DNA of 64,000 nucleotides from an uncultured Clostridia bacterium (GCA_947626765.1 CANQTQ010000002.1:3055-67054), one strand, 5' to 3'; positions 33,418 through 34,272 are shown, numbered from the stretch's first letter. Program-made: numbers and translations. Notes: generated by a model not told the origin, from the sequence alone.

Positions 33418-34128
33418 ATGAAAATGAAAAAATTGATAAGTAAAATATTAGTAATAATGGCACTTGCAGTTATGGCAATGCCGTTAACATCAAATGCAGG
33501 TTTCCAAGCAAATAAAGGAGGAAAAAGCTATACAACAAGTGATACTATATTCGCAAACGACTTATTTATAGGAATAAGAAATATGGAAAAAGAAGGAGGA
33601 ACATTAGGACTAACAGCAAAAATACAAACATCAAGTTATTTAGAAGAAGGAGACGGAAATGGCTTAGATTGCCATATGGCAAAAAATACAGAATGGGGAA
33701 CAGCAGCAATGCTAGCAACATCAATATATGGAGAAGTTCCAGCAGAAGCTAGTAAAAGTATATCAGGAAATGATTCAGGAATATTTCAAATGGCAGATAG
33801 CTCATGTGAATTGGTATCTGGATTTTTTAGTTCTGCTACTTCAAATATGATGAGTACGATCAAGAATGCTGATCCAAGATATTATGACTCATACACAGAT
33901 TCAAAAACATCAAAACCGGGAGACGCAATGAATGAAACAGCAGTTTGGAAAGGAGCCAATGGTTGGTCATTTCAATACTCGGATGGGGACCCTATGTTTT
34001 GCAGGAATTATTCAAGTAAGTTGTTCGGGTTCTTCAACCATGATGGCGCCATACACGGGTACAACGGGGGAGGCATCACAATCTATACTTCTGCTCGTGC
34101 GGTGGTGGTCTGCGGTGCGGGTCTTTAA
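33418..34128 (+). CDS. Small secreted protein with a compositionally foreign C-terminus (possible C-type-lectin/FGE-like fold)
   Basis: 236 aa. Signal peptide ending TSNA|G. Motifs NTEWGTAAML and C-terminal ...TSARAVVV. G+C rises to about 50 percent over the last ~170 nt. Confidence 0.65.
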   Translation: MKMKKLISKILVIMALAVMAMPLTSNAGFQANKGGKSYTTSDTIFANDLFIGIRNMEKEGGTLGLTAKIQTSSYLEEGDGNGLDCHMAKNTEWGTAAMLATSIYGEVPAEASKSISGNDSGIFQMADSSCELVSGFFSSATSNMMSTIKNADPRYYDSYTDSKTSKPGDAMNETAVWKGANGWSFQYSDGDPMFCRNYSSKLFGFFNHDGAIHGYNGGGITIYTSARAVVVCGAGL

Positions 34129-34272
34129 GATAAGCACTGTAATTTGACTTTTGTAAATGGTAAAATATTATGTAGGAAAATGGCAAAAAAAATGTCGTTT
34201 TTCCTACATATTTTTTGTATCTCAAATCCATGGTATAATATAAATTATGTATACTAGGAGGTGATGATACAA

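Follow-up and report, generated by a model that had tools for sequence, protein, structure and literature searches.

Diversity-generating retroelements (DGRs) are known systems that rewrite a portion of a gene, by an established mechanism reportedly described by Liu in 2002, Doulatov in 2004 and Guo in 2008. In the element of Bordetella phage BPP-1 (Mtd, template repeat (TR), avd and brt), a variable region (VR) lies at the extreme 3′ end of the gene for a ligand-binding protein. Other described targets, namely Treponema denticola TvpA and C-type lectin (CLec) targets of the FGE-sulfatase type, are small secreted or surface proteins that consist of hardly anything beyond a CLec/FGE-like domain with a C-terminal VR. 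Targets without an adjacent cassette are known (PMC5758913). In the gut, Bacteroides DGRs diversify Type V pilus adhesins (bioRxiv 10.1101/2024.11.15.621889), and a survey notes DGR targets carrying a GspG-type pilin domain (PMC11661182). Here we analyse a 64,000-nt stretch of DNA (hereafter the window) from an uncultured Clostridia bacterium (GCA_947626765.1, CANQTQ010000002.1:3055-67054), in which a gene at 33418–34128 on the plus strand encodes a 236-amino-acid (aa) secreted protein. Its 3′ segment, at 33940–34126, is very probably the VR of a DGR target gene whose adjacent cassette was lost and which is probably frozen, a reading that draws on the composition of the segment, on homology, on the intact DGRs of relatives, on the junctions of an insertion sequence (IS) and on the absence of a cassette across 64 kb.

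The locus shares with BPP-1 a VR at the extreme 3′ end of the gene for a presumably ligand-binding protein. Its relatives carry AAC-rich TRs with adenine-specific VR/TR mismatches, VRs with an invariant G+C-rich 3′ end, and an Avd and a reverse transcriptase (RT) with IGxxxSQ and YMDD motifs, and Mtd itself is among the top, non-significant Foldseek matches of the target. It differs from BPP-1 in being chromosomal rather than phage-borne, in the target-TR-avd-RT order of the relatives and the loss of this whole cassette from the window, and in its target, a 220–240-aa secreted protein without a Pfam domain. The likeness to TvpA-type targets extends to sub-threshold FGE-sulfatase matches in single-chain relatives and to FGE among the top Foldseek matches, whereas the window sequence falls under the Pfam FGE-sulfatase threshold, has no significant structural match and is paired with a prepilin-like protein. 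As for the Bacteroides Type V pilus DGRs, the bacterium lives in the gut and the target is tied to a pilus-like surface filament, with adaptive adhesion a likely role; here, however, the host is an uncultured Clostridia, the partner has a type IV-style prepilin N-terminus, and the variable module is a separate secreted protein instead of a pilin domain. Specific to this locus are the pairing of a target family lacking Pfam domains with a pilin-like protein, with scaffold and variable module on separate genes, and a VR orphaned by a decayed IS21 element; apart from these features, the segment is a standard DGR VR.

The 3′ end of the target gene is compositionally anomalous. The window has a G+C content of 27.8%, whereas the 180 nt from 33961 reach 49.4% (25, 33 and 31 of 60 nt in three successive lines), the highest of any 180-nt stretch in the window, and the segment 33940–34126, on the plus strand, as a whole has 49%; the AT skew flips from about +0.4 to about −0.1 over 33950–34150. 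Codons ending in C make up 18 of the last 63, as against 13 of the first 175. An earlier note, made by a model from the sequence alone, had reported the same counts; the codons that it listed as a dense run of NNC (N, any nucleotide) are all present, but are a selection and not one continuous run. The gene ends in a stretch of 39 nt without a single A (34088–34126, plus strand, CTTCTGCTCGTGCGGTGGTGGTCTGCGGTGCGGGTCTTT), which we could reproduce by count and which is the longest A-free run on the plus strand of the window (the runner-up measures 22 nt). It encodes the family-conserved SARAVVVCGAGL and forms the invariant end of the VR, resembling an IMH (initiation of mutagenic homing) site.

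This anomaly was further assessed at synonymous sites, by counting third-base A at four-fold degenerate codons only and calculating binomial P values against the window background (64.8% of 5,838 four-fold degenerate codons in 22 window genes). Codons 1–174 of the target gene display no depletion (56/71), whereas A is found in only 6 of 30 such codons among codons 175–236 (P=6.7e-7) and in none of 12 among the last 13 codons (P=3.7e-6). The last 36 codons (2/20) group with TR-linked homologs. The anomaly is thus real, sharply bounded and far beyond chance, and because it sits at synonymous sites, amino-acid composition is ruled out as its cause; synonymous adenine avoidance of this kind is consistent with a footprint of DGR templating.

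Intact DGRs are found beside relatives of the target gene. Relatives' loci (L-numbers, with individual proteins given P-numbers) were taken from GTDB genomes, comprising metagenome-assembled genomes (MAGs) of related gut Clostridia with both orthologous and paralogous genes. Complete cassettes are present in L010, L011 and L019. In L010, the target (10001–10663) is followed by a TR (~10842–10981), avd (11133–11492), RT (11477–12556) and then a gene for a 722-aa pilin-like protein; L019 has the order target, TR, avd, RT and pilin-like gene, whereas in L011 the pilin-like gene comes first, before target, TR, avd and an RT that is split over two frames. Pfam searches of the relatives' cassette genes returned bAvd (9.6e-26, L010) and RVT_1 (2.2e-20), and the RTs of L010 and L019 contain IGNYTSQ and YMDD, which we take to be motifs of DGR-type RTs. 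An RT adjoins homologs in L010, L011, L019, L053 and L055, the last two being Bacilli MAGs in which single-chain forms adjoin avd and RT, and Avd homologs occur in L010 (bAvd), L011, L019, L088 and L100. All 12 VR/TR mismatches over 140 nt in L010 (chance ~8e-8) and all 14 over 127 nt in L019 (chance ~1e-8) fall on TR adenines, and 13 mismatches of L011 lie at TR adenines within the TR proper.

Across homologs, synonymous A avoidance tracks the presence of a TR, with third-base A in 2/25 (L010), 2/23 (L011), 3/30 (L019), 2/25 (L013) and 5/29 (L012) four-fold codons of TR-linked genes, and in 12/25 (L001), 10/22 (L004), 14/30 (L014) and 13/24 (L018) of TR-less ones. The sole exception is L017 (10001–10756), in which avoidance is the strongest of all (1/27) and TR, avd and RT are all absent within 10 kb on either side, making it a candidate for another remote or orphan VR. 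L001 encodes a tail peptide identical to that of the window with A-ending codons. A distant homolog, P0045, writes the same tail peptide as CGT GCA GTT GTA GTA TGT GGT ACA GGA CTT, and no RT was found near it in the loci read.

For the locus itself, the comparison can be made with sister strains. L087, a contig from a rabbit-gut metagenome, displays 95.3% identity to window positions 31848–33785 and 98% along the 3′-terminal 717 nt of the upstream gene, and therefore represents the same locus in a sister strain. Its stop codon is followed by AATAAACACTGTCATTTGACTTTTGAATATAGGGC..., and about 95 nt past the stop by an AAC-rich TR (GTGGGTTGTTCGGGTTC AAC AAC CAT GAC GGC CGC AAC AAC AAC AAC AAC GGC), a copy of the 3′ end of its own gene; over the first ten codons, eight of the nine differences between the two are at TR adenines. 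Three further contigs (L088, L089 and L090) contain the same spacer, a complete TR of ~100 nt and then the start of an Avd-like open reading frame (ORF), which shares 91% identity with the Avd of L011 along 53 residues. The VR core of the window (34020–34125, plus strand), from GTTGTTCGGGTTC to GCGGGTCTT, is homologous to the TRs of L087 and L088.

The A-free tail, which the earlier note had likened to the G+C-rich IMH end of a VR, agrees with the L088 TR in 36 of 39 positions at the 3′ end of the latter. Three of four differences between tail and TR are at TR adenines in synonymous third positions, where the TR has GCA, GTA and GGA and the window GCT, GTG and GGT, which explains the A-free run; such a pattern is to be expected from recurrent mutagenesis of adenines combined with purifying selection. 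The VR 3′ end reads GGACTTT in L010, L019 and L087 and GGTCTTT in the window, and the TRs of L010, L019 and L088 have GGACTCT. The DGR VR that the earlier note had read from composition is hence supported by homology as well, with intact TR, avd and RT in relatives.

In the window, the place of the sister strains' TR is taken by an IS21-family element (34152–36706, plus strand, termini TGTAAATG...CATTTACA). The earlier note had located it just past the stop codon, and its left inverted repeat indeed starts at 34152, 23 nt after the stop's last base. The left end (TGTAAATGG...) and the right end (...CATTTACA at 36706) have matching inverted termini. Inside lie istA (34427–35500, with rve and Mu-transposase C-terminal domains in Pfam), a fragmented istB (35484–36277, IstB_IS21, several ORFs) and, after the istB fragments, an extra 115-aa ORF with no known domain (36264–36611). 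The succession of istA and istB, the TG...CA termini and the imperfect inverted repeats are those of the IS21 family, whereas the frameshifted istB, the out-of-frame istA N-terminus and the extra ORF are not; nor was any target-site duplication, 4–8 bp in this family, seen at the flanks of the element. The istB gene is broken likewise in an independent assembly (L094), which indicates that the element is old, and the 115-aa ORF is called as a gene in L094 too.

The two flanks of the element were never neighbours, because one lies 23 nt into the VR-TR spacer and the other 12 nt before a target-gene stop. On the left, the post-stop sequence GATAAGCACTGTAATTTGACTTT can be aligned to the spacer of L087 and L088 over 23 nt (34129–34151, plus strand), beyond which the IS interrupts the homology. 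On the right, GAGGGACTATAA (36707–36718, plus strand, ...E G L stop) corresponds to the last 12 nt of a target gene and is followed by AATAACCATAAT...; in DGR-less sister contigs (L097–L099) the target gene, ending in ...GAAGGACTATAA, is directly continued by this downstream sequence and the WG-repeat gene, and L098 1530–2454 is 97.5% identical to window 36706–37630. Hence, judging from these junctions, an IS-associated deletion or recombination appears to have removed TR, avd and RT from the locus. A simple IS insertion with the cassette lying beyond it was rejected, as the right flank is the region upstream of the WG-repeat gene, without TR, avd or RT. A tandem-locus model, in which the IS21 deletion took a second pilin-target pair downstream of the RT, was unsupported: L010 and L019, with their target-TR-avd-RT-pilin order, have no second target past the pilin gene.

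Searches of the 64-kb window found no VR copy or TR (repeat search, blastn), no RT (tblastn with the L010 RT) and no Avd (tblastn/blastn), which confirms the earlier note for TR and RT. Contigs 99.9–100% identical to the window extend its sides by 3 kb and 10 kb with neighbouring housekeeping genes, and the called genes of these flanks include no RT-family gene. Exact scans of genome_contigs, a collection that does not hold the strain's genome, gave no new match for a VR tail 23-mer or a TR 5′ 23-mer, and only L011's own contig for a 26-mer of TR 3′ end plus post-TR sequence; a TR 5′ 21-mer gave no new match in metagenome_contigs, where the strain's genome is likewise outside the collection.

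The protein family has a corresponding layout. The 236-aa protein carries a signal peptide (residues 1–27, cleavage after SNA) and returned no hits in a Pfam search. A word-indexed search yielded 66 homologs of 144–277 aa (most 205–243), none carrying a Pfam domain, and a full profile search 2,864 representative clusters (50% identity) at E<=1e-3, 224 of them at E<=1e-30; the best 150 of the 2,864 clusters are mostly proteins of 220–250 aa. The family stems from Clostridia and Bacilli of the gut that are uncultured, and type IV pilin-like proteins are the regular partners of its members. Their alignment contains a conserved core (HMAKNTEWGTAAML, TTGNxSGIYQM and GDAxxET), then a hypervariable part with many Y, N, S, G, H, D and C residues, and finally a near-invariant tail, RAVVVCGxGL, with column entropy peaking at residues 178–226 and falling again in the tail. 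This combination of core, hypervariable stretch and invariant tail is the layout expected of a DGR target. The exact window protein is recorded in one contig only and its closest allele is 78% identical; exact-sequence look-ups of P0002, P0006 and the partner protein encoded upstream (726 aa, see below) gave no record.

Structure prediction, which the earlier note had suggested, was performed with AlphaFold2 and gave a first model with a predicted local distance difference test (pLDDT) score of 74.6 (30 sequences) and a second, of the mature protein, with a pLDDT of 86.1 and a predicted template modelling score (pTM) of 0.87 (63 sequences). Foldseek searches against the PDB were headed by PorK, FGE, TaqVP, ToxD, Mtd and C-type lectins, along with some unrelated folds, although the matches of the pLDDT 86 model are not significant, with a best E of 0.41 and TM <=0.36. 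The best BFVD match is a sulfatase-modifying-factor (SUMF)-like domain (E=0.48). FGE-sulfatase Pfam matches under the cut-off, spanning the HMIKNTEW...TTGNIYGIYDMSGG region, occur in five of eight longer single-chain relatives (E 5e-4 to 2e-2), and weak ones in only 2 of 63 standalone family members. The CLec/FGE-like fold put forward in the earlier note is thus suggested as the consistent best guess, in that such folds top the Foldseek list, but it is not established. PDB sequence matches to sialidase NanJ and PARP14 (E ~0.25) were at chance level and were set aside.

Taken together, these data fit the following scenario. In an intact element, the neighbouring TR is transcribed, an Avd-RT complex makes cDNA from the transcript with errors at adenines, and this cDNA takes the place of the VR, with the invariant, G+C-rich end on the 3′ side as guide. 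Since TR adenines are randomised, positions needing constancy come to be written without A, leaving a G+C-rich, A-free and NNC-rich footprint in an A-rich genome. At the window locus, the deletion or recombination at the old, decayed IS21, which begins in the VR-TR spacer and abuts the 12-nt gene end, would then have removed the machinery. We infer that the window VR was once diversified and that it is now most likely static at one sequence. Its reading frame being intact, the protein probably still functions, presumably in ligand binding and paired with the prepilin-like protein encoded just upstream. The strong A avoidance that remains would reflect either a recent loss of the cassette or continued templating.

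Several points weigh against a VR orphaned in this way. Only 7 of 13 differences between the window VR and the partial L087 TR are at TR adenines, and the window VR is three codons longer than the L088 TR. The VR/TR pair of L088 is itself unequal in length, its VR being four codons longer than its TR, and differs at non-A positions. The nearest cassettes may thus be decaying, or the short contigs chimeric. The central part of the window VR derives from neither sister TR, and A-only VR/TR differences are those of relatives. Between the LFGF and YAS anchors (window 34036–34086, family alignment columns 278–306), close alleles have 10, 15, 17 or 20 codons and the complete sister TR has 14. DGR homing normally leaves length unchanged; TR length may evolve rapidly in this clade, plausibly through slippage-prone AAC runs, or else its cassettes are already decaying. 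The fold assignment, as noted, lacks statistical significance, and the absence of a cassette covers the window and its flanks, so that a DGR elsewhere in the genome may act in trans.

Such a DGR would make the window VR a still active remote target, of which IS21 removed only the local copy of the machinery. We consider this unlikely, even though remote targets of non-phage DGRs more than 100 kb away are documented (PMC5758913), one MAG (with L010 and L013) holds two target loci, and the window VR still avoids synonymous A no less strongly than active loci do. The TR-bearing L088 and L089 also co-occur with contigs 99.9–100% identical to the window at similar coverage (6.95x vs 6.75x in ERZ27249462, 5.35x vs 6.72x in ERZ27060228), but equal coverage is no proof that two contigs share one genome; a working DGR could sit at a second locus of this genome or in a co-resident strain. 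The strain of the window is present in ERR10663698-701 as well as in these two samples. The greater length of the window VR and its non-A differences from the L088 TR speak against remote templating too, as do the interruption of the L088 avd frame after codon 53 and the lack of an RT across 64 kb plus ~13 kb of flanks. Far less probable still is that no DGR was involved, with the G+C-rich tail due to its Gly/Ala/Val/Arg composition or to a horizontally acquired or recombined allele, and with the C-terminal diversity of the family arising by ordinary recombination and diversifying selection. The gene is indeed mosaic between strains (P0002 and P0004 vs the window), P0045, P0011 and P0025 are invariant across many samples, and the 10–20 VR codons of close alleles are a range that DGR homing alone would not produce. 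Yet the anomaly lies at synonymous sites and accompanies TR presence across homologs, L001 encodes the same tail peptide with A-ending codons, and a sister strain carries a TR at exactly this locus; the VR/TR alignments and the synonymous-site test have already largely refuted this explanation.

The preferred reading, a VR whose cassette was lost, places the window in a series of decay states. Next to the complete cassettes of L010, L011 and L019, the family includes a decayed TR copy without RT (L013, in the same MAG as L010), a TR remnant only (L012), a gene end fused to post-TR sequence with truncated avd (90 aa) and RT (98 aa) genes (L100–L102), an interrupted Avd frame (L088), clean absence of the cassette (L097–L099, L001 and L004) and replacement by IS21 (the window). 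The cassette thus appears to have been lost several times, through IS21, VR-TR fusion and truncation. In the assembly index, P0045 recurs in identical form in >360 blocks, while P0011 and P0025 were each seen in 6 contigs; that they are unchanged in many samples fits frozen VRs.

Individual loci of this series were read in detail. The MAG CAKOXK01 has two pilin-target loci, L010 with a full DGR and L013 with a TR copy only (10775–10916), which departs from the L010 TR (10842–10981) by 15 substitutions, most of them non-A; against that same L010 TR, the L013 VR is shorter by 6 nt and has 12 mismatches, of which 9 are at adenines. In L100 (9029–9714, also L101 and L102), post-TR sequence (TACATATTTAGAGGGGAG...) stands directly behind the target-gene stop, which looks as if VR-TR recombination had deleted the spacer, and the L100 target protein is identical in 6 contigs. 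The Avd-like ORF of L088 (2219–2375) stops after codon 53 and is followed by a ~54-nt direct repeat element (GTAAGCGCTCAGTAAAAAGGCG...), in the second copy of which the contig ends; this interruption is either an insertion or an assembly loop. As for the target gene, P0002 equals the window protein over about the first 130 residues and follows P0004 from about residue 123, all three being alike across the overlap of residues ~123–130, and L087 differs from the window (33418–33800) mainly in codons 35–80 and past codon 125. Recombination therefore acts on the target gene besides the DGR. Slippage on TR AAC runs is a possible source of the VR length differences (10–20 codons).

The partner of the target is a 726-aa prepilin-like protein encoded immediately upstream (31097–33277, plus strand), with three module repeats and ending in ...GYWISKYEIQNEE. 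The motif KGITLIALVVTIVVLLILAG is visible at its N-terminus, where the N_methyl match scores 13.4 bits against a cut-off of 21.2, while single-chain relatives reach 26–29 bits and exceed it. Each of the three internal repeats contains a GYW(I/M)SKYE motif. A pilin-like gene adjoins the target gene in L001, L004, L010–L013, L019 and L100, and in many distant relatives one polypeptide combines the prepilin-side module and the CLec part, in the order prepilin N-terminus, module (...NWYDY..KWAN..WVWIPRY..GFWVxKYE) and CLec part. In BLASTP comparisons, residues 187–287 of one such protein (L024) correspond to all three repeats in the 726-aa protein, one by one, and its residues 319–532 to residues 48–212 of the 236-aa protein. 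Being fused in relatives and split here, the two window proteins would be expected to work together, likely as a pilus-borne scaffold with a variable binding module. The 236-aa protein may dock onto the modules of the 726-aa protein, and we tentatively entertain, as a possibility more than an expectation, a two-piece, DGR-tunable pilus adhesin in which the 236-aa CLec half does so and cassette losses fix its specificity.

Just upstream of the pilin-like gene, in divergent orientation (30732–30941, minus strand), lies a gene for a 69-aa XRE-type helix-turn-helix (HTH) protein, and an HTH_3 gene of 73–75 aa occupies the same position in L004 and L100; the HTH gene may regulate the pilin-target pair. 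In L016 (7477–8838), a gene for a 453-aa prepilin-type protein with a classic FGE/CLec-like C-terminus (...NLWEWTEE...HRGGSY...GFRAVLYIK) adjoins an Avd-like remnant as well as a member of the 236-aa family that is truncated at its N-terminus.

Elsewhere in the window, two tandem ~10-kb units (7720–27818) encode giant proteins of 1676 and 1589 aa, then of 1649 and 1692 aa; the copies are 70–86% identical at the DNA level and by appearance represent a duplicated surface-protein pair. Within the 1589-aa ORF, an 18-nt tandem repeat (13970–14095) encoding PPPP and then (TPGITP)n is the second most G+C-rich spot of the window. The region 58799–63754 encodes a protein of 1651 aa, identical in another rabbit-gut contig (L093), in which SpaA and CLIPPER-type domains occur together with internal repeats of ~978 nt.

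Overall, these findings leave knowledge of the DGR mechanism unchanged, while indicating that synonymous adenine avoidance can reveal a DGR VR whose TR and RT have been lost; such relic VRs would escape DGR finders that take the RT as their starting point. If the slippage suggested above holds true, it would represent a route to diversity with which DGRs are not generally associated. The decay series at one locus lends itself to studying under which conditions hypermutation is retained or turned off. The locus also adds a large family of secreted DGR targets without Pfam domains and points to diversified adhesion in gut commensals, and, if the adhesin reading is true, loss of the cassette would be a way for these bacteria to fix one binding specificity.

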